A stretch of 64,000 bases of DNA from assembly GCA_965231125.1 (NCBI GenBank), contig OZ246414.1:281512-345511 (forward strand), written 5' to 3'. Positions 6,707-62,742 of the stretch are shown in pieces (the first letter of the stretch is position 1; each line of letters begins with the position of its first letter). Under the pieces are notes generated by a model. It did not search any database, had not been told where the DNA came from, and saw nothing but the letters and a program-made list of their open reading frames with translations. The position numbers and the translations under genes were made by a program. Source of the DNA: an uncultured Gammaproteobacteria bacterium. Its GTDB lineage: Bacteria > Patescibacteriota > Microgenomatia > Woykebacterales > RBG-16-39-9b.

Positions 6707-8491
6707 ATGAATAATATCAGAAACGTTGCTATCATTGCTCACGTCGATCACGGTAAGACCACTCTTGTCGATGCCTTGCTGCGACAAAGTAATACCAAGC
6801 TCCACAAAGATTTGGAGGGCACGAACCTAATAATGGATTCCAACGATCTTGAAAAAGAGCGCGGCATTACTATCTTTTCCAAAAACGCTTCGGTTGTTTG
6901 GAAGGGTACAAAGATAAATATCATTGATACCCCTGGGCATGCCGATTTTGGAGGAGAGGTCGAACGGGTCTTGAAAATGGCTGATGGGTGTCTACTGCTG
7001 GTTGACGCCAAGGAAGGCCCCATGCCGCAAACTCGTTTTGTCCTCAAAAGGGCTCTCGAACTCGGTCACAAAGTTGTGGTCGTTATAAACAAAGTGGACA
7101 AACCCGATGCTAGAGTCGAGTGGGTGGTGAATAAAACTTTTGATCTTTTCGTTGAACTTGGGGCCAGCGATGAGGCAGCTTTTTTCCCAATTGTTTACAC
7201 TTCAGCCAAAAAGGGATTGGCGGGAGTTGGGCCGGATTTAAATCAGATGAAAGATATCGCCCCAGTTTTTGAGGCAATCATCGAACACATCCCCGCCCCG
7301 ACCGGAGAAGCAAGTAAACCGTTGCAAATGTTGGTCACTACAATTCTCGGGGACAATTTTAAAGGACGGATCGCGACTTGTCGAATTTACAACGGTTCGA
7401 TAAAGTCCGGGCAGGAGGTTACTCATATAAACCGCGTCGGCGAAATGAAAAAAGTAAAGCTAACTGCCCTCATTGGCTTTTCCGGGTTGGATAAAATTGA
7501 TATTCTCGAGGCGGAAGCTGGAGACATTGTGGCGGTTGCCGGAATCGAAAATGTGAATATTGGTGAGACCATTGCTGATCCTAACGAAGCTGTCGCCTTA
7601 CCTCTTTTGGACATTGAAGAACCGACGATCAACATGACTTTTTCGGTAAACAGCTCTCCTTTTGCCGGAAAAGAAGGGCAGTTCAAGACTTCTCGGCAAA
7701 TTCGAGAGCGACTTTTCAAAGAACTCGAAACCGATATGGCTTTGAAGGTGGCAGATGGTGCAGACGGAGATTGGATTGTTTCTGGTCGAGGAGAACTACA
7801 TCTGGCTATTTTGATCGAAAGAATGCGTCGCGAAGGTTACGAATTTCAAGTGGCCCGGCCGCAAGTAATCACGAAAAAGATTAACGGCAGGACACTAGAG
7901 CCTTACGAAAAGGTTTTCATTGAGGCTCCGGAAGGCTATTCCGGGGTGATAATGCAAAAAATGGGAGAGCGCGGGGCTTTGTTGCAAGATATGAATACCG
8001 AAAATGGTGTTGTACAAGTAGAATTTATCATCCCAACCCGAAAACTATTTGGCTACCGTAGCGGGTTTCTTACCGACACCAAAGGGGAAGGTATTATCAA
8101 CACAGTGTTCCATGAATTTAGAGAAGATGCCGGTGGAATTTTTGAGAGAGGTCCTGGATCACTAGTTGCTTTTGAAGATGGTCCGACAACTTTGTATGGG
8201 TTAACCAATGCTCAAGAGCGTGGAACGCTCTTCCTAGGACCCGCTACCCCCGTCTACAAAGGCCAAGTTGTGGGACAGAATTCCCGGGGCGGAAATATTA
8301 AAGTGAATGTTTGCAAAGAAAAGCAACAGACCAACATGCGTTCTAGAGGCGAGGGAGTTGCAGAGCATTTCAATGCTCCCCAACCGATGGGTTTAGAGGA
8401 CGCCCTTGAATATATTGATGGTAGCGAGTTAGTAGAAATAACCCCGGAGAATATCCGAATCCGCAAAATCGATCTAAATTCTAAATATTAA
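6707..8491 (+). CDS. typA: Translational GTPase TypA/BipA
   Basis: Begins NIRNVAIIAHVDHGKTTLVDALL and carries the G1-G5 motifs, followed by EF-G-like domains. Length 594 aa. Confidence 0.95.
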   Translation: MNNIRNVAIIAHVDHGKTTLVDALLRQSNTKLHKDLEGTNLIMDSNDLEKERGITIFSKNASVVWKGTKINIIDTPGHADFGGEVERVLKMADGCLLLVDAKEGPMPQTRFVLKRALELGHKVVVVINKVDKPDARVEWVVNKTFDLFVELGASDEAAFFPIVYTSAKKGLAGVGPDLNQMKDIAPVFEAIIEHIPAPTGEASKPLQMLVTTILGDNFKGRIATCRIYNGSIKSGQEVTHINRVGEMKKVKLTALIGFSGLDKIDILEAEAGDIVAVAGIENVNIGETIADPNEAVALPLLDIEEPTINMTFSVNSSPFAGKEGQFKTSRQIRERLFKELETDMALKVADGADGDWIVSGRGELHLAILIERMRREGYEFQVARPQVITKKINGRTLEPYEKVFIEAPEGYSGVIMQKMGERGALLQDMNTENGVVQVEFIIPTRKLFGYRSGFLTDTKGEGIINTVFHEFREDAGGIFERGPGSLVAFEDGPTTLYGLTNAQERGTLFLGPATPVYKGQVVGQNSRGGNIKVNVCKEKQQTNMRSRGEGVAEHFNAPQPMGLEDALEYIDGSELVEITPENIRIRKIDLNSKY

Positions 8492-9655: not shown

Positions 9656-9700
9656 AAAGGAAAAAAGCGGTGGGGGTGCTTGAAGAACAGGCACCCCCTT
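9656..9700 (-). terminator. Rho-independent terminator for the minus-strand zinc-ribbon gene
   Basis: On the minus strand, a GGGGGTGCC..GCACCCCC hairpin is followed by a T-run (ACCGCTTTTTTCC). Confidence 0.5.
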
Positions 9701-10061
9701 TAGACAGGTGTAGGTGGTGGATGAGGATCGTCCTTTGGGTCGGCCTGCCAGATTCTTGCTAGGATAAAAGGCAGACCGCTTTCATAGTCTGGAGGGATCT
9801 GGCCACTGGTACGAAGTAGCGCTTCCTCAGCTATCGATCTATCCCCACAGACAGCCTCCTTTGCTCTCTTCGCGTCAGAGTGTTCAGCACTTACGTTTAG
9901 AGTGTAGCCTTGGCTGCACGTACTACATAGTGCTTGAACAGACCAGACCTTCTCACTTATCTGTTTTAGATCTATCCGGTCGTATCGGAACAGCGTCTTA
10001 CATGCTGGGCAAGCGAGAGGGATACCGACACAGATTTGCCTGATTATATCCTGCTCGTCCA
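9700..10061 (-). CDS. Cys-rich zinc-ribbon protein, hypothetical
   Basis: Start MDEQD after AAAGGAG. CPAC and CSTC motif pairs. Locally higher GC than the flanks. The 10206 start in the ORF track looks like an over-extension. Confidence 0.45.
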
Positions 10062-10115
10062 TTTGTCTCCTTTCTCTCTGACGCGGACGGATTATTTCTA
10101 TTATAGTATAGTCAA

Positions 10116-10193
10116 GCAAGATAAACCCGCTTTTAGACTCAATTTGTATAGTCCACGACTGTGGTTGCAGCATTCGTGAGAATGCTCTAAAAT
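10116..10193 (+). repeat. Conserved upstream module with hairpin AGCATTC-GTGA-GAATGCT, copy 2
   Basis: Paralog of 10702-10782. The stem covaries between copies (TC/GA versus CT/AG). Sits just upstream of the gene at 10213. Confidence 0.5.
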
Positions 10194-10212
10194 CAGCTAG
10201 AAACAAACCTCA

Positions 10213-10805: not shown

Positions 10806-11156
10806 ATGAATACCAAAGAGCTGCAGAAGAAAATAGTAAAATTTCGTGATGCTAGAGATTGGAAGCAATTCCACAACCCCAAAGATCTTTCTATTTCATT
10901 ACTTCTTGAAGCAGCAGAACTACTAGAACATTTTCAATGGAAAAGCCAACAAGAAATGGACGATCTACCAAAGACAAAAGAGTTTGGGGATGTAAAAGAA
11001 GAAGTCGCGGACATTTATTACTGGGTTTTGCTGGTTGCCAATGATTTAAATATCGATCTAGAAAAAGAGTTTTTGAAAAAAATGAAGCAAAATGAGAAGA
11101 AATACCCAATAGAGAAGGCCAGAGGAAGTCATAAAAAATATACAGAACTAACATGA
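10806..11156 (+). CDS. MazG-like nucleotide pyrophosphohydrolase
   Basis: Pattern FRDARDW.QFH.PKDL..SL..EAAELLE.FQW plus the EEVADIYYWVLLVAN helix pair. Confidence 0.7.
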   Translation: MNTKELQKKIVKFRDARDWKQFHNPKDLSISLLLEAAELLEHFQWKSQQEMDDLPKTKEFGDVKEEVADIYYWVLLVANDLNIDLEKEFLKKMKQNEKKYPIEKARGSHKKYTELT

Positions 11157-12271
11157 ACAAAACAAGAAAAATCTTCTTTGTTGTTGCAAGTGGTGGTCAG
11201 GAGACTGACAGACATTACTACGACACAATTGAGAAGAAACGAACTGTAGAAGAAGCAGAAAAATTTTTGGCTCCAGAAGAGATCAATATTCTGAAAAACA
11301 AATATCATAGTGGTCCGTTCGCAGTTTGGGGTGCAGTTCCAGGAACTGGAAATTCAAGAACTTGGGATTCTATGGAACCTGGGGATTATGTTCTTATCTA
11401 TAAGTCTGGGTCAATTATTTTTGCTGCCGAAGTAGCTCTCAAAACTAGAAACCCAAGAATGGCTGAGTATCTATGGAGCAAAGATAGTAATGGCCAAACT
11501 TGGGAATATATGTATTTTCTGGTTAATACTGAGAAGGTTAACGTTGGTATGGCAAAGTTGAATCCCCTGCTCGGTTACAGCGAGAATTTTTTCCCAAGGG
11601 GATTTTCTGCAATTGACCAAAATAAAGTTGATGACTTGTTAAATAAGTACGGAGATACCTTGTCTGTACTTAAAAAGATCGAACAAGGGAGAGAATTAGA
11701 AAAGATAGACGAACATAAGAAAGTAGAAGAGATAGTATTAGATGAAAAAGTAGAAAGAGCTCCAACAGAGCATGATGAGATGCAGTGGCGATTAATTAGA
11801 CTTGGTAAAAAGTCCCATGTTGATGTTTGGGTTCCACAAAACGATCAAGGTAAGGTATATGATAACCATGTTTTTAGAAACGAGGTTCTAGAGGACTTTC
11901 AAACTACTTTGGATGTACCGACATATATCAAAAACATTGACGTTGTTTGGAAATACGGGTTCTCAATAAAATCTGCTTTTGAGATCGAACATTCCACCTC
12001 AGTTTATTCAGGTATTTTAAGACTTTCTGATCTTCGAGCACTGACACCTAACTCCATTTATCCAATGTTTATCGTCGCTGATAGAGATAGAAAAAATAAA
12101 GTTTTTTCTGAGCTCCAAAGACCTACTTTTGACAACCCTTATCTAAACCTCAAAGAGGTTATCAGCTTTCTATCTTATGATAAAGTTCGAGAGCTTGACG
12201 AGGATTCTAAAGATCAGGATGCAAACGTTTCATTAGACTTCTTAGCGAGACAAGCTGAAAAGGTTAACTAA
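11153..12271 (+). CDS. Hypothetical two-domain protein (PUA/EVE-like N-terminus, possible PD-(D/E)xK-like C-terminus)
   Basis: Overlaps the MazG stop by 4 nt. The C-terminal segment IDVVWKYGF...EIEHS has a nuclease-like look. Weak assignment. Confidence 0.45.
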   Translation: MNKTRKIFFVVASGGQETDRHYYDTIEKKRTVEEAEKFLAPEEINILKNKYHSGPFAVWGAVPGTGNSRTWDSMEPGDYVLIYKSGSIIFAAEVALKTRNPRMAEYLWSKDSNGQTWEYMYFLVNTEKVNVGMAKLNPLLGYSENFFPRGFSAIDQNKVDDLLNKYGDTLSVLKKIEQGRELEKIDEHKKVEEIVLDEKVERAPTEHDEMQWRLIRLGKKSHVDVWVPQNDQGKVYDNHVFRNEVLEDFQTTLDVPTYIKNIDVVWKYGFSIKSAFEIEHSTSVYSGILRLSDLRALTPNSIYPMFIVADRDRKNKVFSELQRPTFDNPYLNLKEVISFLSYDKVRELDEDSKDQDANVSLDFLARQAEKVN

Positions 12272-12279
12272 ACCCTTGT

Positions 12280-12312
12280 TAGCAGACCACCTATCTTTCT
12301 GCTAGTTTTTCA
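12280..12312 (+). terminator. Rho-independent terminator
   Basis: Hairpin TAGCAGA..TCTGCTA followed by GTTTTTC. Confidence 0.5.
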
Positions 12313-12358
12313 GGTATAATTTTATTACTGCCCTGAACAAGGGCTTTTATTTTTAAAA

Positions 12359-12805
12359 ATGGCTAAGTACAGCAAATTAAAAGTAATTTGTGATGCAAGC
12401 TGCAAAATCCCGAATGCAAATGTAAAGGGGAGGCCAAATTTTGGAAAGGCAGCAGGTGCATACCTATTTTTAGATGAGGTAGATAACCGTATTGAGAGTG
12501 GAGGTTTCTACCTCGGAGAAATGAGCCCCTATGAGGCTGAGTATCAAACTCTTTTAAAAACTCTCGATTTAGTAAGTGGTATTTGTAGAGGCGTGGTTGA
12601 AGTTTTTATGGACGCCGAATTTGTTATACGGCATATGAACGGAACTTACGGATTAAAATCAGATGTTGTCAAACCCATTTTTGACAAAATAAAATCAATA
12701 GAAACAGCTAGATTTAAAAAAGTTGACTATTATCATCATTCTCGTGATACGGAGTACGGAAAAGTTGTAGATAATCTGGCCAAACAAGAAGTTAATAAAT
12801 ACTAG
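12359..12805 (+). CDS. RNase H-like domain protein
   Basis: Catalytic pattern D(ICDAS)..E(EAEYQ)..D(FMDAEF)..H/D(HHSRDTEYGKVVDNLAKQ) in the order expected for RNase HI. Confidence 0.5.
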   Translation: MAKYSKLKVICDASCKIPNANVKGRPNFGKAAGAYLFLDEVDNRIESGGFYLGEMSPYEAEYQTLLKTLDLVSGICRGVVEVFMDAEFVIRHMNGTYGLKSDVVKPIFDKIKSIETARFKKVDYYHHSRDTEYGKVVDNLAKQEVNKY

Positions 12806-12977
12806 ATATTTAATCGAGAAAGGCGGGTGAATAGGATGCTAAGCGATCATGGTCTACTTGAAAAAGCAATTGAAATAGCAAAAGAGTATGCAAGAAGTGG
12901 AAACAATACACCAAGTGTAGAAGCTGTTCTTGAAAGAGTTTACGAAACACTTAAAAAACTAAACAAGCAGGTATAAT

Positions 12978-13046
12978 TCTTGACACTTCAGGCAAATACT
13001 TCGATAGACTCAGTACAAGCAGGCATGAAGTTTGCTTTTCTTTTCC
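12978..13046 (+). repeat. Intergenic repeat family (TCTTGACAC...CAGGCATGAAGTTTGCTTTTCTTTTCC), copy A
   Basis: Related copies at 13365-13394, 14466-14605 and 15358-15427. Contains a TTGACA hexamer. Confidence 0.5.
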
Positions 13047-13196
13047 CGACCAATCATACTTAGACAACATGGCACACTCTCAAGGTAAACAAAGGCGCGA
13101 AACTAAAAAGCCTAAAAAGAATAAAAAGAAATAAAACCCTTGGTTTGCACCCAAGAATCTTCTTTTTGCTCGCTTATTAAGAAGCTCACAAAATAA

Positions 13197-13358
13197 ATGG
13201 CCGATCCTGTAAGATGTCCTTATTGCAATAGCAGAGATTTATCCACGGTACCTGCCCCTTTTGGAGAGAGTGTACAAACAAGCTCCATCACCTACAAATG
13301 CCAAATATGTCACCGCAGCTTTAGTAAATCCTCTTCAGAAAAAAGTAAAGACGAATAA
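13197..13358 (+). CDS. Stand-alone IS1595/IS1-like transposase zinc-ribbon mini-protein (53 aa), paralog 1
   Basis: RCPYCNS...YKCQICHRSFS fits the pattern CPxCxS..(n)..YxCxxCxxxFS. About 80% nucleotide identity to 14649-14810. Confidence 0.5.
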   Translation: MADPVRCPYCNSRDLSTVPAPFGESVQTSSITYKCQICHRSFSKSSSEKSKDE

Positions 13359-13364
13359 AAATTT

Positions 13365-13394
13365 CCTTGACACTCCAGGCAAACAAGCATAAAG
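13365..13394 (+). repeat. Intergenic repeat family, short copy B (CCTTGACACTCCAGGCAAACAAGCATAAAG)
   Basis: TTGACA, a 17-nt spacer, then TAAAGT. Promoter-like, just upstream of the REC gene. Confidence 0.4.
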
Positions 13395-13404
13395 TTTTCT
13401 CAAA

Positions 13405-13797
13405 ATGAAAACTACTAGAATATTGATCTTGGAAGATGATTTAGAAACTCTTTCAGTCTTGCTCAGAAAGCTACATGAACTTGAAGAAGAGACAGCGTCG
13501 GTTATTTCTGTTGTGACTCTTTCTGAATACACTCAAGTAGAAGAATTTATCAATAACAAGAAGGACTTGGGCTTTGATATTGTTCTCCTCGATCGGGATT
13601 GCAAAGCTGGAGGATCCTTCCACACTCTAGAAATTGAAAAGTATGGTCCAGAGAAAATCATTTCAATTTCCTCGATCCCAGACTACAACCGGCAGGCGCA
13701 AGGACGCGGTGTCAAAAGAATTGTTTGGAAGGACTATCAAAACCTTGAAGATTTCTCTCTTAAAGTAATCGAAAACATTAAACAAATACTTAGCTAG
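13405..13797 (+). CDS. Stand-alone receiver (REC/CheY-like) domain protein
   Basis: ILILEDD...DIVLLDRD layout. Confidence 0.5.
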   Translation: MKTTRILILEDDLETLSVLLRKLHELEEETASVISVVTLSEYTQVEEFINNKKDLGFDIVLLDRDCKAGGSFHTLEIEKYGPEKIISISSIPDYNRQAQGRGVKRIVWKDYQNLEDFSLKVIENIKQILS

Positions 13798-13819
13798 TTT
13801 TTCTTGCTATAATTAAAGC

Positions 13820-14149
13820 ATGATATTGATAATAAGTGAAAAAGCTAGTAAAGAACAACTTGAACAAATGGCTCAGGACTTTGATGGTTTTATAAAAGTC
13901 GTTGTCGATATTGAAAAAGGAATATTGGCTGGAGGTGGGGAAAGGCACGTAGATGCAGAACAACTAATGCTCCAGGAAGGTTCAAAGCAAAGCGATCTTT
14001 GGGGTGGTGGTTTAGATTTGGAAACGAAAGATAGAGACTACAATTCTGTAATTAACCTTCGACCCAATCAAGACAACTCAAGTCGTGATATACTATCAAA
14101 AGAAATTAGAAAGCAGTTTGACGAAATTGTGAAGAAGCTACTACTCTAA
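13820..14149 (+). CDS. Hypothetical protein
   Basis: ORF of 109 aa, no domain recognised. Confidence 0.4.
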   Translation: MILIISEKASKEQLEQMAQDFDGFIKVVVDIEKGILAGGGERHVDAEQLMLQEGSKQSDLWGGGLDLETKDRDYNSVINLRPNQDNSSRDILSKEIRKQFDEIVKKLLL

Positions 14150-14157
14150 GAAACTTT

Positions 14158-14463
14158 ATGAACAAAAAAGAAAAAATTTTGGATATAGCGATGAATTTAA
14201 ATAGAGTTGGAAACTGGTTGTATGACGACCCGCAATCTAAAGGAAAAAGAATCAATAGTTTTTTGAGTAATACCAATTTGATTTTGGGTTCCTTACCCTC
14301 AAGCTCCTTTTCAACACCTTTCCGTACTACCTACGAGAAGTTTTTGGGTGACTATGGTCAGCTGAACAAACAGATTGAATCAGCCGATATTGACAACCAG
14401 TACTGGGGAGAGAAAGCAATGACTTGGGGAACTGTACTTACTCACCGCTCAAAATTAATTTGA
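14158..14463 (+). CDS. Hypothetical protein
   Basis: ORF of 101 aa. Confidence 0.35.
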   Translation: MNKKEKILDIAMNLNRVGNWLYDDPQSKGKRINSFLSNTNLILGSLPSSSFSTPFRTTYEKFLGDYGQLNKQIESADIDNQYWGEKAMTWGTVLTHRSKLI

Positions 14464-14465
14464 TT

Positions 14466-14605
14466 TTCTTGACACAGGTTCTACAAGCCCACTGTTTTAA
14501 AACTTCCTTCCTACGTTTTTAGCTTTATGGTGGCAAGCAGGTAAACCCAACTCCGCTTCGTAAGCTACGATGGACCGGTAGGCATGAAGTTTGCTTTTCT
14601 TTTCC
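14466..14605 (+). repeat. Intergenic repeat family, copy C
   Basis: The 5' part (TTCTTGACACAGGTTCtACA) matches copy D; the 3' part (CAGGCATGAAGTTTGCTTTTCTTTTCC) is identical to copy A. Confidence 0.5.
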
Positions 14606-14648
14606 AAACAAGTTGCTATTATTGTTCCTTACGCTTAAACTTAAGCCT

Positions 14649-14810
14649 ATGCCAGACGAAATAAGATGCCCTTATTGCAATAGCAAAGATTTAGCCACTG
14701 TACCTACCCCTTTTGGAGAGAGCGTGCAAACAAACTCCACTACCTACAAATGCCAAATATGCCACCGCACTTTCAGCAAATCCTCCTCCGAAGAAAATAA
14801 GGAAGAATAG
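14649..14810 (+). CDS. Stand-alone IS1595/IS1-like transposase zinc-ribbon mini-protein (53 aa), paralog 2
   Basis: MPDEIRCPYCNSKDLATVPTPFGESVQTNSTTYKCQICHRTFS. The ORF-track start at 14613 is an upstream extension. Confidence 0.5.
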   Translation: MPDEIRCPYCNSKDLATVPTPFGESVQTNSTTYKCQICHRTFSKSSSEENKEE

Positions 14811-14852
14811 ATAATTGACATACGATAATACATATGTTAGTATGTACCTATT

Positions 14853-15089
14853 ATGTTTCCAAAAACCACTACCGCTAGAGAAATACAAAGAAACTACCGC
14901 AAGGTCTTTGATACTGTCAAAAAGACTAAGGAGCCTATCTTTGTCATGAAGAATAACAAGCCGGAGGTTGCAATCATCGATGCAGACCAGCTTGAAGAGA
15001 TGGAAGCAGTGCTTGCCGTACTTCAAAGCCGCGAAGAAATGAGAGCAGGAAAAGGAAAACTCTTGAAGTCACTAGCCGATCTACGCTGA
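14853..15089 (+). CDS. Type II antitoxin, Phd/YefM family
   Basis: 78 aa with an N-terminal AREIQRNYRKVFD..EPIFV motif, immediately upstream of a RelE-like toxin. Confidence 0.65.
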   Translation: MFPKTTTAREIQRNYRKVFDTVKKTKEPIFVMKNNKPEVAIIDADQLEEMEAVLAVLQSREEMRAGKGKLLKSLADLR

Positions 15090-15095
15090 AGGTAA

Positions 15096-15353
15096 ATGAA
15101 AATCTTCTACTCACGCAAGTTTTCCAACGAGTATAAGCGTTTACCATTCAAAGTTAAATTGCTTGCAGAGAAAAAAGAAGAAATCTTTCGCAGAAATCCG
15201 TTCGAACCTCAACTTAAAACCCATAAACTTAGTGGTAGATTGAAAGACTATTATTCATTTTCAATAGATTATCAGTATAGAATTGTTTTTGAATTTGAAA
15301 ACAACGATACTGTTTGGTTTCATTCGGTTGGCACACATGAAATCTATAAATAG
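15096..15353 (+). CDS. Type II toxin, RelE/ParE superfamily (YoeB/Txe-like)
   Basis: 85 aa with a conserved C-terminal YRIVFEF....V.FH.VGTHEIYK. Confidence 0.65.
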   Translation: MKIFYSRKFSNEYKRLPFKVKLLAEKKEEIFRRNPFEPQLKTHKLSGRLKDYYSFSIDYQYRIVFEFENNDTVWFHSVGTHEIYK

Positions 15354-15357
15354 TAAT

Positions 15358-15427
15358 TTCCCTGACACAGGTTCGACAGTTCAATGGACTCAGCACGACC
15401 AGGCATGGAATTTGCTTGTTTGATTCC
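15358..15427 (+). repeat. Intergenic repeat family, copy D
   Basis: Reads CCCTGACACAGGTTCGACAG...GACTCAGCACGACCAGGCATGGAATTTGCTTGTTTGATTCC, related to copies A and C. Confidence 0.45.
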
Positions 15428-15441
15428 TTTTATCTACAATT

Positions 15442-15540
15442 ATGCTGATTGATGAGACTGGAAAGATTGAGAAGATTTACGAAAAGGTAAAGCCGACCGT
15501 TCGTGCAAGTGAAGTTTTGATTGATCTGGAAAGAGGGTGA
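15442..15540 (+). pseudogene. Remnant of a Bcp-type peroxiredoxin (C-terminal ~32 codons only)
   Basis: MLIDETGKIEKIYEKVKPTVRASEVLIDLERG matches the conserved C-terminus of thiol peroxidase Bcp (FLID..G.I...Y.KV.P..HA.EVL..L). No N-terminal catalytic part is present. Confidence 0.35.
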
Positions 15541-15700
15541 TTGTCATTTCCCATCACGAAGGTAAGAAAAAAGCTGCTCCAAAAAAGAAGGCTAGCAAAA
15601 AAGGCAAGAAATGATTAATTTTATTTACTATAGCCCGCTCGTAGCTTATGCTTTCTGATCGTTGTCAGAAACCAGCTACTGCGCGTGCTGCGACCATTTC

Positions 15701-16528
15701 ATGGGCTTGGAATACAAGTATCTAACTGAAAACCAAAAAATCCCTTCACTGGGTTTGGGTACTTGGGGAATGGGTGGTTGGATGCGGCCGGACCGTTCCC
15801 AGGACGCAAAATATATTCGGGCGATTGAGTATGCTCTTGAGAAAGGTATTACCCACATCGATACTGCCGAGCTTTACGGGGCCGGCCACGCCGAAGAACT
15901 TATCGGTGAGGTAATAAAATCAGTCGATCGCAAAAGGCTTTTTATCACCAGCAAAGTTTTACCAATTCATTTAAGTTATGAATCAATTTTAAAAGCCGCC
16001 GAAAAATCCACCAAAAGGCTCGACACCGACTACCTGGATTTATATTTAATTCATTGGCCGAATCCCTTAGCTTCAACGAAGAACGCAATGGCTGGATTTG
16101 ACAAACTGGTCGACCAAGGTCTTGTTAAATTTATCGGAGTTTCCAATTTTTCTGTATCTCAATTTCAAAACGCCCAAAAATATGCAAGTCATAAACTAGT
16201 TTGCAATCAGGTCCGCTACAACTTGCTTGATCGAAGAGTTGAAGACGAGCTGCTCAAATTTTGCCAGGAAGAGCGTGTCATCTTAACTGCCTACAGTCCG
16301 CTTGCCGAAGGAGAGTTGACGAGACAAAAGTTTGAGCAATTGGAAGAGGTCGCCAAAAAATACGGCAAGACTCCTGTTCAGGTAGCCCTTCGCTGGTTGC
16401 TGGAAAAGCCGCAAGTAATTACGATTCCAAAGGCTAGTAGTCCAGATCATATTGATGAGATCTTGGGTACGCTCGGCTGGAAATTGGAGAAAGAAGACCG
16501 AGATTATTTAGATGGAGAGTTTGCTTAA
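15701..16528 (+). CDS. Aldo/keto reductase family oxidoreductase
   Basis: LGLGTWGMG, IDTAELYG, LYLIHWP and the TIPK region. The track start at 15662 is probably an extension; ATG 15701 is preferred. Confidence 0.75.
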   Translation: MGLEYKYLTENQKIPSLGLGTWGMGGWMRPDRSQDAKYIRAIEYALEKGITHIDTAELYGAGHAEELIGEVIKSVDRKRLFITSKVLPIHLSYESILKAAEKSTKRLDTDYLDLYLIHWPNPLASTKNAMAGFDKLVDQGLVKFIGVSNFSVSQFQNAQKYASHKLVCNQVRYNLLDRRVEDELLKFCQEERVILTAYSPLAEGELTRQKFEQLEEVAKKYGKTPVQVALRWLLEKPQVITIPKASSPDHIDEILGTLGWKLEKEDRDYLDGEFA

Positions 16529-29851: not shown

Positions 29852-29998
29852 CTCTGAGCTAGGTAAAAAGCCGCTTAGCGCAGATTGATAACGTCATGTC
29901 CTTAGTTCAAGATAATAGCCGTTAGGCTATTCTTGAACGCAAGACACGCAGTAGCCAATTTCTGGTAGGAAATATCAGCTACGAGTGTCTTATAGTTC

Positions 29999-30027
29999 TT
30001 GACAATTAGCTTTGTTTGTGCTATAAT
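29999..30027 (+). promoter_or_regulatory. Strong sigma70-type promoter for the DGR target gene
   Basis: TTGACA (29999-30004), a 17-nt spacer, then extended -10 TGcTATAAT (30019-30027). Start codon about 70 nt downstream, preceded by AAGGAGAGGAGGG. Confidence 0.5.
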
Positions 30028-30095
30028 CTCGAGTATCGGCAAGCGCAACTTTCCGTAAGGAAAGGAGCTTTCAAGAAAGGAGAGGAGGGACACCC

Positions 30096-30941
30096 GTGGT
30101 TATACGGACACCCCAAACTCTAATAGATCTGAGAGTCTTGGACCTGGTAGGCCCACCAATGGCAGGGCTTCCTGAAGAGGTGCTTAAGCATCATCTCAGG
30201 AATCTCGAGCCGATTCATTGGGCGATCGGAGAAGTCGCCAGAAGTATGAGACTGGGTGAAGTCGATCGCCAGCAACTCAGAATGGTCCTCCAAGGGATCA
30301 GACTGCCGGCTCCGACGATAGTTATCCCCGAAGCACAGCTTCCCGCAAACGACCCGCTCCGGCAAGTGTTCCCGACCGGCGGTTGGTACATGAAGTGCCC
30401 GCCCGGAATCGATCTGGTTCTGCTCCACCAGAGCGTCGGCCAGTTCGGGGCAGATGTGCGTTTCTACCGGCAGAACGATTCGGATCCGTGGTTTCTTAAG
30501 AGCTACGGAGAATGGTCGCCAGAGGGTAAGGGAAGTGAAGTGCAGCGGCTCACCACCCACTCGTGCCACCTCTTCATCCCAGACCCTTCGCAGTGGCTGT
30601 TCCCAGACAGCAAGGGCCTGCGTCGTGACGATTGCCTGCAGATGCAGCGCGAGTTCGAGAAGAAGTTGCCAGACGGTCGGACTTGTCCGGAACCGTCACT
30701 GGAGACTTTGGCTCTCGCGGCTTTCGAGTACCATCGGCAGCATCCGAGCCAGTGGCCACTTCGTGGCCCTAACTACGCCCGTTGCGCCAATCGCTTCGGC
30801 CGGGGTGGCTGGCTCGACGGTGGTGGCTTCGATCCGCGCGGTTTCGGCGTCAGCGGCTGGGGCGGGCTCGGCGGTGGCAATCTCGGTGCCTTGCGCTGGG
30901 TAGTGTGGTACGACGAAGAGGAGGCAGAGCAGGCCGCCTAG
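30096..30941 (+). CDS. DGR target (variable) protein; the C-terminal region carries the VR
   Basis: GTG start. Markedly GC-rich compared with the flanks. Its last ~40 codons (…GWLDGGGFDPRGFGVSGWGGLGGGNLGALRWVVW…) align to the TR with adenine-specific differences. Confidence 0.7.
   Translation: MVIRTPQTLIDLRVLDLVGPPMAGLPEEVLKHHLRNLEPIHWAIGEVARSMRLGEVDRQQLRMVLQGIRLPAPTIVIPEAQLPANDPLRQVFPTGGWYMKCPPGIDLVLLHQSVGQFGADVRFYRQNDSDPWFLKSYGEWSPEGKGSEVQRLTTHSCHLFIPDPSQWLFPDSKGLRRDDCLQMQREFEKKLPDGRTCPEPSLETLALAAFEYHRQHPSQWPLRGPNYARCANRFGRGGWLDGGGFDPRGFGVSGWGGLGGGNLGALRWVVWYDEEEAEQAA
30791..30906 (+). repeat. DGR variable region (VR)
   Basis: 116 bp, gapless alignment to the TR at 31759-31874 with 22 mismatches, all at TR adenines. 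The 3' 29 bp (CAATCTCGGTGCCTTGCGCTGGGTAGTGT) is identical and GC-rich, resembling an initiation-of-mutagenic-homing (IMH) element. Confidence 0.85.
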
Positions 30942-31016
30942 CTCTCGGACCTGGAAAACTTGGACCTTCTGGAATCTTGGTCCTTGGTTCCTTCGCCCGC
31001 AGAAAAAGATTCCAAC

Positions 31017-31066
31017 CCGACCCCGTTTCTCAAACACGTTGCGAGAAACGGGGTCTTTCTTTTCTC
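31017..31066 (+). terminator. Strong bidirectional hairpin terminator
   Basis: 13-bp perfect stem GACCCCGTTTCTC / GAGAAACGGGGTC followed by TTTCTTTTCTCTC. It lies between the convergent target and GIY-YIG genes. Confidence 0.55.
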
Positions 31067-31069
31067 TCG

Positions 31070-31366
31070 TTATTCTGGCTTGTCCAGAATCTGTCCGTAC
31101 AAATCTTTGAAATTAGGATTAAACTTCTTTATCATCTTAATCTTATCTATTCGGTTCATGTCCTTAATTTGTTTCTCTCTGATGATTGCTTGGTTAATAT
31201 TGGTAAGAATTTCAAAGTAAACTAGTTTGTACAGGTTGTATTTTGCAGTGAAACCTTTTGCAACATGGTTTTTGTGTTGCCAAACACGTTTTACTAAATT
31301 ACTAGTTACACCTGTATAAAGTGTTGGTCTATCATTGGCCATTATGTAAATATAACCAGGGTTCAT
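31070..31366 (-). CDS. GIY-YIG nuclease family protein
   Basis: Begins GYIYIM...LYTGVTSNLVKRVWQHK. A short free-standing URI domain sitting inside the DGR cassette. Confidence 0.75.
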   Translation of the reverse strand: MNPGYIYIMANDRPTLYTGVTSNLVKRVWQHKNHVAKGFTAKYNLYKLVYFEILTNINQAIIREKQIKDMNRIDKIKMIKKFNPNFKDLYGQILDKPE

Positions 31367-31512
31367 CCGGCTAATTATAAAAGATTCTGGATGCGTTCTG
31401 TGAGACAGAACTTACCAGAATGACTTGCGATGAAAAAACGTCACTCTGGCTTGACCAGAGTCTTTTTGAGAAAGATTCTCCGAGTCAGTAACACTTTTCC
31501 ATAATGACAAAG

Positions 31513-31521
31513 TGGTATAAT
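31513..31521 (+). promoter_or_regulatory. Candidate extended -10 promoter (TGgTATAAT) that could drive the TR transcript
   Basis: About 240 nt upstream of the TR on the TR strand, with no clear -35. Confidence 0.25.
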
Positions 31522-31758
31522 TCTCGTGGAGACAAGTTTAAGTATCAGCGGTCAAGGCTTCTGGTCGCTTTTCTCTCTACAATCTCCTTTAGTCCGGAAC
31601 TCTAAACGACTAAGGTCATTAGAGGTGTGATAAAGATTGCTAGACACTCCTTGCCTTTTCCTAGATCCCCCTACGCTAAAAGCTGCGGTGGGACGATAAA
31701 ATTCAATCCCTAGAAGTTTTCAAAGGATGGTGGGTGCTAGAAGGGAAAGGGCAACATT

Positions 31759-31874
31759 TCGCTACGGCCAGAGTAACTGGCTCAACGGTGGTAACTTCGA
31801 TCCGAACGGTTTCAACGTCAACAACTGGGACGAGAACGGCAATGACAATCTCGGTGCCTTGCGCTGGGTAGTGT
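31759..31874 (+). repeat. DGR template region (TR)
   Basis: Adenine-rich (28 A in 116 bp, many as AAC codons). 22 of those A positions are substituted in the VR. The ORF-track entry at 31727-31927 is an artefact of the TR. Confidence 0.85.
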
Positions 31875-31891
31875 CTAGAGGAAAAAGACGT

Positions 31892-32275
31892 CTAGGTGGT
31901 TTTGGCTTGTTTGATCCAGCCACCTAGCATCTTACCGATCTCTATTAAGAGATTCTCAAAAGAGAGATATTTTTGTTGATTGATTGCTCTAGTCTCAAAG
32001 GAGAGGCGCAATAGTATTTTTAAAACGTCCAGTTTGGCTGAGGCTCTTTCCAGGTAAACAAGTTTTTCGTTTTTACTCTTATAGCCTGCAAGTAGAACCA
32101 ATTCGAGAATTTCTAGGTTTAGGTCTGCACATTTTTGACCTACAGTGTAGCGATCTTGCCGAGGAAAATGTTTGAGAGCTTCGTGAAGGTTTTTATAAAA
32201 ATCGTAGGTCTTCTGAAATATGGGAATATCTAAATTACTTGAGTGGGGGGGGTCGAGTTGAAAACCTTTACTCAT
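31892..32275 (-). CDS. avd: DGR accessory variability determinant (Avd-like four-helix-bundle protein)
   Basis: 127 aa with the helix-pair pattern typical of four-helix-bundle proteins. Lies between the TR and the RT, on the opposite strand. Confidence 0.7.
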   Translation of the reverse strand: MSKGFQLDPPHSSNLDIPIFQKTYDFYKNLHEALKHFPRQDRYTVGQKCADLNLEILELVLLAGYKSKNEKLVYLERASAKLDVLKILLRLSFETRAINQQKYLSFENLLIEIGKMLGGWIKQAKTT

Positions 32276-33382
32276 CTTAGCTTTCTTAAGCGCCGAGCGC
32301 GTAGCGATCTATACAAGAAGGTTATCTCACTTCCCAATCTTTTTCAAGCTTGGGATGAGTTTAAGAAGGGGAAAAGAAAAAAGATTGATGTTGGAGAATT
32401 TGAGAGACATCTGGAAGACAATATTTTTGAACTGCGTCGGGAGTTGTTGACTAAAACCTACCGACACTCCTCTTACACCGGTTTTTACATTACCGATCCC
32501 AAAGTCCGCCATATCCACAAAGCGATTGTTCGCGACCGAATTGTTCACCACGCCCTATTCAAAGTTCTCAATCCCATCTTTGAACCTACTTTCATTTCTG
32601 ATTCTTTCTCTTGCCGAAAGGGATATGGAACTCATAAAGGATTTAAGAAGTTGGTTGTCTATGCCCGAAAAGTTAGCAAGAATTACACCCAAGATGGTTG
32701 GGCTTTAAAATGCGATGTAAAAAAGTTTTTTGACAGTGTTAATCATAAAGTTTTGCTAGAAATAATTAAAAGAAAGATTAAAGAAAAAGATCTGCTCTGG
32801 TTACTGGAAGAAATAGTTGGAAGTTTCTGCACTTGTCATTCTGAGGTAAAACCGAAGAATCTGAGATCCTTCGCTAATGCTCAGGATGACGATTATTGTA
32901 AAGGTATTCCCATTGGGAATCTGACTAGCCAACTCTTCGCCAACGTTTATCTTAATGAGCTAGACCAGTTTGTCAAAAACGAATTAAAGGCTAGATACTA
33001 TATCCGCTACGCTGATGATCTCCTTATCTTAATCGAAAACACAAAGGGTTTAGTCCAATATACTGGTATATTGGACAAGTTTCTTGAGGACAGGTTAAAA
33101 TTGGAACTGCATCCAAACAAAATTTCCTTGAGGAAACTGCCTTGGGGAGTCGATTTTGTTGGTTATATCGCTTTACCACATTATCAAGTTTTGAGAACCA
33201 AGACTAAAAGAAGAATTTATCGAAAGATTCGAGAAAGGATTTTTAGTTACAATGCAAAAAACATTAACTACGAATCCTTAAACCAATCCATCCAGTCTTA
33301 CTTGGGGATTTTGAAGCACGCTAATACACATAAGTTAGAACAGAATTTAAGAAATCAAATATATTTTTGGTTAACGGCTTAA
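32243..33382 (+). CDS. DGR reverse transcriptase
   Basis: RT motifs including the DGR-specific IGNLTSQLFANVYL (SQ in place of QG) and the YADD box (YIRYADDLLIL). About 375 aa with no maturase or endonuclease domain. The start is GTG 32243 or TTG 32258. Confidence 0.85.
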   Translation: MGGVELKTFTHLSFLKRRARSDLYKKVISLPNLFQAWDEFKKGKRKKIDVGEFERHLEDNIFELRRELLTKTYRHSSYTGFYITDPKVRHIHKAIVRDRIVHHALFKVLNPIFEPTFISDSFSCRKGYGTHKGFKKLVVYARKVSKNYTQDGWALKCDVKKFFDSVNHKVLLEIIKRKIKEKDLLWLLEEIVGSFCTCHSEVKPKNLRSFANAQDDDYCKGIPIGNLTSQLFANVYLNELDQFVKNELKARYYIRYADDLLILIENTKGLVQYTGILDKFLEDRLKLELHPNKISLRKLPWGVDFVGYIALPHYQVLRTKTKRRIYRKIRERIFSYNAKNINYESLNQSIQSYLGILKHANTHKLEQNLRNQIYFWLTA

Positions 33383-62595: not shown

Positions 62596-62742
62596 AGGTC
62601 AAAGGAATACGGGTGAAGCACGGTGTAAATCCGTGGGAGTGCCGCTACTGTAAACCCAGAACCCCGCCTTTGAATCCCTTCGAGCAAAGGAGGTGAAAAA
62701 TCACTTAGGATTTAAACCAGCCAACTTTGCGGCTGGTTTTTT
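62596..62742 (+). ncRNA. Cobalamin riboswitch-like leader (assigned from memory, not verified) with a terminator expression platform
   Basis: GGTGAAGCACGGTGTAAATCCGTG...GCCGCTACTGTAAACC resembles the cobalamin-riboswitch core as I recall it. It is followed by the hairpin CCAGCC..GGCTGG plus T6 (62717-62742), directly upstream of the DUF4430 gene. Confidence 0.5.

Follow-up and report, generated by a model that had tools for sequence, protein, structure and literature searches.

Promoter-early stem-loop (PeSL) cassettes belong to the T4-type phages, in which recombination at promoter/stem-loop modules has been proposed in hyperplastic regions (Arbiol et al. 2010, PMC2839356; Comeau et al. 2014, PMC4122927). 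These cassettes unite promoter and terminator functions (PMC2839356). They appear to be the closest analogue, in function and architecture rather than by membership, of a repeat present in four copies (c1 to c4) between small genes of a bacterial chromosome. The stretch concerned, called the window here, is a gene-dense chromosome segment of 64,000 nucleotides and about 43% GC from the Patescibacteria (candidate phyla radiation, CPR). Its part from about 10.8 to 15.6 kb, the island, is probably a recombination-shuffled array of small accessory blocks around a lineage-conserved micro-operon, in which Lys1, encoding a lysine-rich peptide, precedes ZnR, encoding a small zinc-ribbon protein. The window was compared with public or metagenome contigs and loci labelled L001 to L134 (e.g. 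L086, L110), and the nearest relatives among them belong to other species and are metagenome fragments. The micro-operon and the copies of the repeat are laid out as follows.

12976–13068, + strand: repeat c1, a stack of three promoter-like units before Lys1
12980–12985, + strand: c1, first unit, TTGACA
13005–13010 and 13026–13031, + strand: c1, degenerate middle unit, TAGACT with TGAAGT
13032–13037 and 13055–13060, + strand: c1, candidate working promoter, TTGCTT, 17 nt, CATACT, then 8 nt to ATG
13069–13134, + strand: Lys1 micro-ORF, MAHSQGKQRRETKKPKKNKKK, 21 aa, lysine-rich, unannotated
13197–13358, + strand: ZnR1, free-standing four-Cys zinc-ribbon protein, 53 aa
13363–13404, + strand: repeat c2, compact predicted promoter, TTGACA 13367–13372, 17 nt, TAAAGT 13390–13395, 9 nt, ATG 13405
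14465–14648, + strand: repeat c3, a mosaic of putative promoter fragments before ZnR2
14469–14474 and 14591–14596, + strand: c3 parts, TTGACA, then about 85 nt with another promoter-type fragment, then the 3' module with TTGCTT
14614–14622, + strand: c3, candidate extended -10, TGCTATTAT
14649–14810, + strand: ZnR2, second zinc-ribbon gene, without Lys1, 77% amino acid identity to ZnR1
15358–15441, + strand: repeat c4, a putative promoter stack fused to a bcp fragment
15362–15367, 15385–15390, 15412–15417 and 15435–15440, + strand: c4 parts, CTGACA; TGGACT; TTGCTT, 17 nt, TACAAT

The Lys1 family sequence, MAHSQGKQKREVKKPKKNKKK, is 21 codons long and highly conserved, and 23 distinct upstream contexts, that of the window among them, have Lys1 at 0–63 nt before ZnR. 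Pairwise comparison of 20 distinct 66-nt Lys1 genes gave 1392 synonymous and 494 non-synonymous codon differences, and the Ser codons alternate between AGT and TCY. The excess of synonymous differences, together with the switches between the two kinds of Ser codon, indicates that Lys1 is selected as a peptide, that is, at the protein level, across about 20 genomes. It is too short for standard gene callers, and a PDB profile search returned only a chance match to a designed repeat protein. Around the Lys1-ZnR unit the neighbourhood is roughly conserved, with BipA, bcp, an ABC transporter or the S12 operon close by, and the unit looks like a resident gene pair and not like cargo. It may be guessed that both products are small nucleic-acid-binding proteins.

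ZnR1 and ZnR2, described in the first-pass annotation of this DNA as two 53-codon ORFs of about 80% identity, are indeed 77% identical in protein and 85% in DNA, and the similarity ends at the ORF ends. Their codons differ by 11 synonymous and 12 mostly conservative non-synonymous changes, with all four Cys kept. Since these differences are mild, the Cys are retained and the family is conserved across many genomes, both are regarded as live genes, not relics. The closest DNA match of ZnR2 is a cassette in L090 that likewise lacks Lys1, and the pairwise alignment of c3-ZnR2 with L090 is compatible with a deletion of the Lys1 ORF. When 1.84 billion representative proteins were searched with a ZnR profile (HMMER), five small stand-alone proteins were found; the remaining matches were eukaryotic C2H2 multi-finger proteins only, via the YKCxxCxxxFS motif. 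An indexed homology search yielded 16 proteins of 47–59 aa, and a metagenome scan about 30 more loci, with NrdR genes as weak out-group matches (L123, L125, L128–L130). The true homologues are all stand-alone, 47–59 aa long, and in related Patescibacteria. The unit is absent from IMG/VR viral contigs, where a single unrelated weak ZnR match without Lys1 was seen. In an AlphaFold2 model ZnR1 forms a three-stranded ribbon (pLDDT 72) whose nearest folds are generic ribbons (the NrdR N-terminus, Rpb9, RpoP), no match being significant (E above 0.1); there was no transposase among the matches in PDB sequence and fold searches.

Pfam and NCBIfam matches of the ZnR ORFs all fall below cut-off and are spread across many zinc-ribbon families, the best being ECs_2282_CxxC (22–26 bits). 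NF050000 (IS1_IS1595_Zn) gives 17.4 and 20.2 bits for the two ORFs against a cut-off of 28, and covers the second Cys knuckle only; taken with NF048018, these sub-threshold scores range over 17–21 bits. The IS1 model NF033558 reaches 13–15 bits against a cut-off of 100, and PF12760 has no match at E<=0.1.

The region upstream of Lys1, compared in the 23 distinct contexts, is strongly conserved across genomes. Its order is TTTCTTGACAC...CAAACAAGC-TAATTC/ATGAAA, overlapping CCTTGTC, then 17 nt, TATAAT, 8 nt and ATG, and the spacer after TTTCTTGACAC contains CAAACAAG. TATAAT or TATACT stands 7–8 nt before the ATG in 19 of the 23 contexts, and the window has CATACT at exactly 8 nt. By its hexamers and spacing the region would comprise two overlapping sigma70-like units, and the Lys1 mRNA is probably leaderless, since the last -10 box is only 8 nt from the ATG. 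Both c1 and c4 align over their full length with this conserved region of the relatives, plus one extra unit of about 22 nt (alignment A8). Judged by consensus and conservation, there is a reasonable case that the repeat is the predicted stacked sigma70-like promoter region of the Lys1-ZnR micro-operon.

Related elements are common in the lineage. The motif TTGAC-N-CAAAC has 41 distinct copies in 271 kb of related loci vs 11 in shuffles, most of them just upstream of small genes. Elements of the form TTTCTTGACAC-N-CAAAC-N-TAAAAT, with an architecture like that of c2, stand upstream of small genes in L085, L086, L105–L107 and L112, and at least five follow one another in a row in L086. Within the window the T-tract form of the motif upstream of a gene is found only in the island, at c2 and c3; a looser pattern has seven further scattered matches elsewhere.

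The four copies reported by the first-pass annotation were all recovered, and they differ in build. The 5' module, TTYCYTGACAC..., occurs at 12976, 13363, 14465 and 15358 (5 hits in 64 kb vs 0.47 expected). The 26-nt 3' module, AGGCATGAAGTTTGCTTTTCTTTTCC, is identical at 13021–13046 and 14580–14605 and 73% identical at 15401–15426, against a chance expectation of 0. The four also vary in length and content: c1 and c4 span about 75 nt, c2 has no separate 3' module, its own -10 stretch resembling that module weakly (3 mismatches in 16 nt), and c3 carries about 85 extra nt. The predicted c2 promoter matches 10/12 positions in a consensus scan. The additional promoter-type fragment of c3 is of a type that occurs twice in L090, and window 14580–14816 is 87% identical to L090 1148–1383, where a compact form precedes the orthologous ZnR. 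A c4-type stack in L106 is also placed 3' of a Phd-RelE toxin-antitoxin pair, but upstream of Lys1; L106 has two copies of promoter stack plus Lys1, at 1113 and 3417, of which the second directly follows Phd-RelE, parallel to c4 in the window. A search for further copies, as the first-pass annotation had advised, found none in the 64-kb window outside the island. Neither terminal inverted repeats nor target duplications were found at the repeats, and no inverted repeats flank the zinc-ribbon ORFs. Rfam has no match to the repeats at gathering threshold or E<=1, and they fold no better than shuffled sequence (z-scores 0.1–0.6).

According to the explanation proposed here, Lys1 (a 21-aa polybasic peptide) followed by ZnR (a four-Cys ribbon of about 50 aa) would be the micro-operon around which the array grew. 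Its promoter stack would consist of overlapping sigma70-like units about 23–27 nt apart, each having a T tract and -35 box, with every -10 overlapping the -35 of the unit that follows, except the last, which would lie 8 nt before the ATG of a leaderless mRNA. Copies or pieces of the stack would head the transcription units of the island: c1 for Lys1-ZnR1, c2 for a 130-aa gene, a DUF5674 gene and a 101-aa gene, c3 for ZnR2, and c4 for a bcp remnant and a second micro-ORF, Lys2; a separate promoter would serve the toxin-antitoxin pair. Unequal or short-homology recombination between stacks would have left two kinds of scar, the additional unit of c1 and c4 and the pile-up of fragments in c3. Recombination at short, similar promoter modules, be it unequal, by short homology or after DNA uptake, is the most economical reading. 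Type IV pilus genes and TfoX_N are encoded in the window.

The other genes of the island and its conserved anchors are listed here in order.

10806–11156, + strand: MazG-like pyrophosphatase, conserved left anchor (PF12643, 1.5e-16)
11153–12271, + strand: orphan type II restriction-endonuclease-like gene (NmeDI_C), variable cargo (PF27126; PADLOC REase_II 3.4e-9)
12359–12805, + strand: RNase H-like protein, variable cargo (PF13456 RVT_3 2.2e-6; NCBIfam RNase HI models about 1e-7)
12836–12976, + strand: 46-aa ORF, called in public assemblies, no family match
13405–13797, + strand: 130-aa protein, possibly a divergent receiver (CheY-like) domain
13820–14149, + strand: DUF5674 protein (PF18924, 1.4e-31), 73% identical in L117, where a 101-aa gene again follows
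14158–14463, + strand: 101-aa protein, partner of DUF5674, with a 48% identical homologue directly after DUF5674 in L117
14815–14843, + strand: predicted toxin-antitoxin promoter, TTGACA, 17 nt, TAGTAT, with TG (10/12 in the consensus scan)
14853–15089, + strand: Phd/YefM antitoxin (PF02604, 40.7 bits, cut-off 29.8, 2.1e-10)
15096–15353, + strand: RelE/ParE-superfamily toxin, HigB/YafQ-like (PF05015, 27.6 bits, cut-off 27)
15442–15540, + strand: bcp remnant, last 32 codons, with homology to intact bcp from 15445
15537–15614, + strand: Lys2 micro-ORF, VIVISHHEGKKKAAPKKKASKKGKK, 25 aa, its GTG overlapping the bcp stop codon (GTGA)
15631–15707, + strand: structured-RNA-like leader of about 75 nt, overlapping the start ATG (15701) of the next gene and bordering the island
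15701–16528, + strand: aldo/keto reductase (AKR), conserved right anchor (PF00248, 3.7e-71), 70% amino acid identity in L091 at the same relative position

The surrounding chromosome encodes BipA, SecF, RecJ, AspRS and glycolysis genes, and GC falls to 0.36–0.39 over about 10–15 kb vs about 0.43 in the surroundings. The nearest GTDB species representatives, all Patescibacteria, have BipA identities of only 64–72% and showed no synteny in a BipA-based scan, so the synteny comparison that the first-pass annotation had called for was made on metagenome fragments. In relatives whose BipA is 82–93% identical, the anchors BipA, MazG and AKR are kept and the genes between them differ, as expected of an accessory region. 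The MazG-like protein is 84% identical to that of L091 and 61–65% identical to those of L086 and L126. The place of the restriction-endonuclease-like gene is taken in L091 by two unrelated genes. The 130-aa protein has weak response-regulator matches (E 0.15–0.5) and no Pfam match; its homologue in L106, 55% identical, lies beside a Lys1-ZnR unit. The 101-aa protein has no family or PDB match.

Five blocks of homology are shared with the relatives: 13056/13069–13364 (Lys1 and ZnR1), 13853–14450 (DUF5674 and the 101-aa gene), 14580–14816 (3' module and ZnR2), 14815–15359 (Phd-RelE) and 15445–15614 (the bcp 3' end and Lys2). Each is bounded by a repeat or promoter element, and L091, L092, L106, L107, L110, L117 and L126 have these blocks in other orders. 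In L091 the order is BipA, MazG, two other genes, Lys1-ZnR, a membrane protein and AKR. In L110 and L107 it is Phd-RelE, a second toxin-antitoxin pair, the stack, Lys1-ZnR, a reverse multi-ribbon gene, GIY-YIG, bcp-Lys2 and BipA. L106 has the 130-aa gene ... Lys1-ZnR ... Phd-RelE-stack-Lys1, and L117 has Lys1-ZnR, DUF5674 and the 101-aa gene. Because relatives hold the same blocks in other orders, the region is read as accessory and shuffled between conserved anchors. The variable block has BipA (window 6707–8491) on its left side in L091, as in the window, and on its right side (bcp-Lys2-BipA) in L092, L110 and L087; on these gene orders, either BipA or the whole variable block would have changed sides within the lineage. 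The window also encodes, at 9700–10206 on the - strand, a 168-aa Cys-rich protein resembling multiple zinc ribbons, with homologues of 56–64% identity near Lys1-ZnR units in L087, L089, L098 and L119.

The Phd/RelE pair at 14853–15353, proposed in the first-pass annotation, was confirmed by both profiles given above. The toxin also scores 28.9 bits with PF15738 (cut-off 30) and 9.5e-8 with a RelE-like PHROG, and Phd is 81–90% identical in L106 and L107. The pair is ordinary, one of the shuffled blocks, with DNA 77–79% identical in L107 and L110, and the homology block shared with L107, L110 and L106 begins exactly at its predicted promoter (14815). PADLOC and PHROGs together gave only the restriction-endonuclease-like call and the confirmation of this pair.

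At the right-hand end of the island a 32-codon C-terminal remnant of Bcp had been recognized in the first pass, and it proved to be 58–71% identical over 31–37 residues to the C-terminus of relatives' Bcp ORFs (tblastn against L110: 70% over 37 aa, E=5e-13), with a weak profile match (NF006960, E=0.12). By blastn, window 15445–15614 is 84% identical in DNA to the bcp 3' end and Lys2 of relatives. Intact 153-aa bcp genes occur in L110, whose product matches AhpC-TSA at 4.5e-41, and in L092, L105 and L126. The remnant lacks the N-terminal part of about 120 codons, including the peroxidatic Cys (FYPxDxTxGCT), and the homology starts at 15445, directly after the putative -10 box of c4. Lys2 occupies the same overlapping position after intact bcp (L110 2491–2568, L092 6049–6126) and follows the pattern VI[VN]ISHHEGKKKxxPKKKxSKKxKK, the S-H-x-x-G-K start of which resembles Lys1. 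Since its GTG start overlaps the bcp stop codon, translational coupling to bcp is suggested. An AGAGGG ribosome-binding site for Lys2 lies inside the end of bcp, so that the retained 3' end keeps both this site and the GTG.

The remnant would have been left by a deletion that brought a stack into direct contact with bcp at codon ~121. The stack that follows Phd-RelE in L106 is placed to drive Lys1, and in L110 the order runs RelE...stack-Lys1-ZnR...bcp-Lys2; if an ancestor like L110 or L106 had lost, in a single deletion, the DNA between the Lys1 start and bcp codon ~121, exactly RelE-stack-bcp remnant-Lys2 would result, the junction seen in the window. Such a deletion would keep the signals needed for expression of Lys2.

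Other explanations give the repeat and its neighbours a different history. The first-pass annotation had taken the region for a decayed mobile-element landing pad, in which the ZnR ORFs were N-terminal relics of IS1595/IS1 transposases and the repeat was a reused, promoter-bearing element like a miniature inverted-repeat transposable element (MITE). Part of this description holds: the region is accessory, variable and low in GC, the repeat is promoter-like and reused, and the CPxC...YxCxxCxxxFS spacing does resemble that of transposase zinc-binding domains, with sub-threshold scores for NF050000 and NF048018. However, nothing in the analysis points to a decayed transposon. All transposase profiles stay below their cut-offs, with matches limited to a single Cys knuckle; the ZnR searches (1.84 billion representatives, indexed, PDB and fold) contain no transposase; the homologues are free-standing, without a DDE domain, and place the ORFs in a non-transposase family of 47–59 aa, an outcome that the first-pass annotation had itself named as refuting its reading; and the conservative differences, retained Cys and conserved family are those of live genes. 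The repeat, without terminal inverted repeats, target duplications or other copies in 64 kb, does not look mobile, and it sits at a fixed distance from start codons. The transposase origin of the ZnR ORFs was accordingly rejected, and the landing pad as a whole is considered very improbable. A site-specific cassette system of integron type, with the repeats as recombination sites and the recombinase encoded elsewhere, is improbable as well, if a little less so. It would account for a co-oriented array of short ORFs that includes a toxin-antitoxin pair, with related elements of variable length between them, and for the same blocks in different orders in relatives. Against it, the conserved parts of the repeats coincide with -35 and -10 hexamers, promoter spacing and a fixed distance to the ATG, no paired imperfect inverted repeats or RYYYAAC/GTTRRRY cores were seen in them, and their folding equals that of shuffles. 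Precomputed domain data for the called genes, covering about 1.2–24 kb and 28–58 kb of the window, record no transposase or integrase domain, no IntI-type integrase or other tyrosine or serine recombinase, and no DDE family.

An intrinsic terminator deserves more attention, although it is still unlikely as the whole explanation. The 3' module would then serve chiefly, by a hairpin (AAGCAGGC-ATGAA-GTTTGCTT) and T run, to end the upstream operon, and the repeat would not be a promoter. A consensus scan does flag 13017–13037 and 15400–15418 as terminator-like, with a hairpin and T run at 13017–13046, c1, c3 and c4 all come after the final gene of a block, a clearer hairpin and T tract occurs just upstream of stacks in L105, L106 and L109, and PeSL cassettes have both functions (PMC2839356). 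The stems in the window, however, are short, contain many G-T pairs and do not exceed shuffles in stability; on reading the sequences, the pairing is absent from the orthologous L090 copy and from c3; and in the alignment these bases correspond to the -10/-35 overlap of the relatives' compact promoter. The hairpin may add terminator activity as a secondary role. Least credible of all is a derivation of the repeat copies from bcp, as coding debris left from its lost 5' part; almost no weight can be given to this idea. It draws on c4 abutting the bcp remnant and on a c1 frame (LDTSGKYF...) with a superficial resemblance to a peroxiredoxin N-terminus (LxDxxGK), but translations of the repeats match neither AhpC-TSA nor Redoxin even at E=10, the reading frames differ between copies, and DNA homology to intact bcp begins only at 15445, no repeat matching bcp; it was rejected. 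A tRNA-fragment or att-site origin for a GGTTCGA-like stretch in c3, c4 and L085 was also tried and discarded, as the tRNA scan found no tRNAs and no T-arm pairing was seen.

In the relatives, the hairpin and T tract directly upstream of the stacks have the form CCAGAAGT-TGAACAGG-ACTTTTGC-TTTT, a terminator-then-promoter layout (L106 1008–1045 and 535–570; L105 ~4840; L109 ~700–810). The loop of the L109 hairpin holds a 46-nt insertion with a TTCGATAAACTCAG box, which is also present in c1 and c4 of the window and in L090.

Several observations weigh against a shuffled array joined at stacked promoters. The promoters are predicted, having been called by consensus alone; in c1 and c4 the -10 boxes of the middle units are poor (TGAAGT, TGGAAT) and the spacers 15 nt long, and the c3 stack has a 20-nt spacer and depends on its extended -10. 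Genes being the units that are conserved, it is in part trivial that block edges fall in the elements between them. Only in the window and L090 was the long form, with three units, found, and its origin is thus poorly sampled. Logan contigs of SRR6155503, SRR6155504 and SRR6155509 match the window at 100% identity, and all public contigs carrying the island are likewise identical, without strain variants, so that the insertion or deletion event is not seen directly; the comparison runs instead through fragments of other species.

The small genes are also poorly represented in public data. Logan gene calls on the identical contigs (L001–L004, L134) omit ZnR1, ZnR2, RelE, Lys1 and Lys2 and cut Phd to 47 aa, which makes the small-gene content of the island invisible in protein databases. 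Exact look-ups with ZnR1 and with AKR (the version with a TTG start) and an indexed homology search with ZnR2 alone gave no match, as such small ORFs as ZnR1 and ZnR2 are uncalled in public data.

The leader at 15631–15707 has homologues at L106 2662–2764 (- strand) and L126 5838–5932 (+ strand), the latter before an ABC ATPase. Its GTAGCT/AGCTAC stem is invariant, and a variable hairpin shows compensatory changes, three pairs having changed on both sides. With a fold z-score of -2.2 and no Rfam match, the element may be an undescribed cis-regulatory leader.

Elsewhere in the window, an AdoCbl-II (cobalamin) riboswitch was found at 62599–62673 (39.3 bits vs a gathering score of 36.5). At 29998–33382 lies a complete diversity-generating retroelement (DGR), which is unrelated to the island and holds the only other reverse-transcriptase-type gene, at 32243–33382 (RVT_1, 1e-20). 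Its variable repeat (30791–30906) lies at the 3' end of a GC-rich ORF (30096–30941) and its template repeat lies at 31759–31874; 22/22 mismatches between the two are at template adenines. A GIY-YIG gene (31070–31366, - strand) lies between these repeats, and a near-perfect TTGACA-17-TATAAT promoter sequence stands at 29998.

To our knowledge, the small proteins of uncultured CPR bacteria are almost unexplored. The island itself is ordinary, with a toxin-antitoxin pair, an orphan restriction enzyme, small genes without known function and conserved anchors. Modestly new are the unannotated Lys1-ZnR micro-operon, the Lys2 micro-ORF and the lineage-specific stacked promoter predicted here. Two conserved micro-ORFs, Lys1 (21 aa) and Lys2 (25 aa), and a zinc-ribbon family of about 50 aa had been missed by public calls on matching contigs, and Lys1-ZnR is a defined, testable small-protein pair. 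A sequence-level picture of a promoter for the lineage also emerges, with T tract, TTGACA, CAAAC spacer motif, TAAAAT and leaderless geometry. A tempting misannotation is corrected: an ORF that is short and of the Cys4 kind need not be a relic of a transposase. There is a hint that shuffled genes are joined where reused promoter modules stand; if true, the PeSL idea would extend to bacterial chromosomes. A wider proposal, more doubtful than the shuffled array itself, is that Lys1-ZnR is a micro-operon found throughout this Patescibacteria lineage, with a core role (e.g. ribosome- or polymerase-associated, or nucleoid-binding), and that its stacked leaderless promoter region also acts as a portable regulatory and recombination module that shuffles small accessory genes, a chromosomal counterpart of PeSL.

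Compared with known protein families, ZnR has the Cys spacing and the YxCxxCxxxFS-like second knuckle of the N-terminal zinc-binding domain of IS1/IS1595 transposases, but it falls below the cut-offs and has no DDE domain, inverted repeats or transposase homologues. With the N-terminal ribbon of NrdR and the TFIIS/Rpb9 ribbons it shares the four-Cys three-stranded ribbon, a CPxCxSxD first knuckle and a basic or aromatic CxxCxRxF second knuckle, and the NrdR and Rpb9 ribbons are its top fold matches (TM-score 0.5–0.64 on the query, none significant); ZnR differs in its length of about 50 aa, in lacking an ATP-cone or other domain, and in its pairing with Lys1. The window copy of bcp differs from Bcp/AhpC-TSA peroxiredoxins in having lost the Cys-bearing thioredoxin-fold part, only the last 32 or so codons remaining. 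The toxin-antitoxin pair resembles type II Phd/YefM-RelE systems in having the antitoxin first, a 6-nt gap, matches to both profiles and its own predicted promoter.

Unlike PeSL cassettes, the elements of the window lie in a bacterial chromosome and not in a phage, are stacked in tandem and apparently give leaderless mRNAs; their stem-loop is weak and not conserved, and their promoter and terminator activity, like recombination between them, is putative. In other respects the two may be likened. Both are short conserved intergenic modules with a strong sigma70-like promoter, predicted in the window, and a T- or AT-rich stretch upstream of the -35 box, and at the level of consensus the promoter finds its counterpart in c2 (10/12) and in c1 and c4 (TTGCTT-17-CATACT/TACAAT), with the geometry kept in 19 of 23 contexts. 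A G-T-containing stem-loop able to overlap the -10 box, flagged in the window but equal to shuffles in stability, may be a further point of likeness. Finally, the modules precede small genes, mostly without known function, in a hypervariable region, and it is at the modules that relatives differ.

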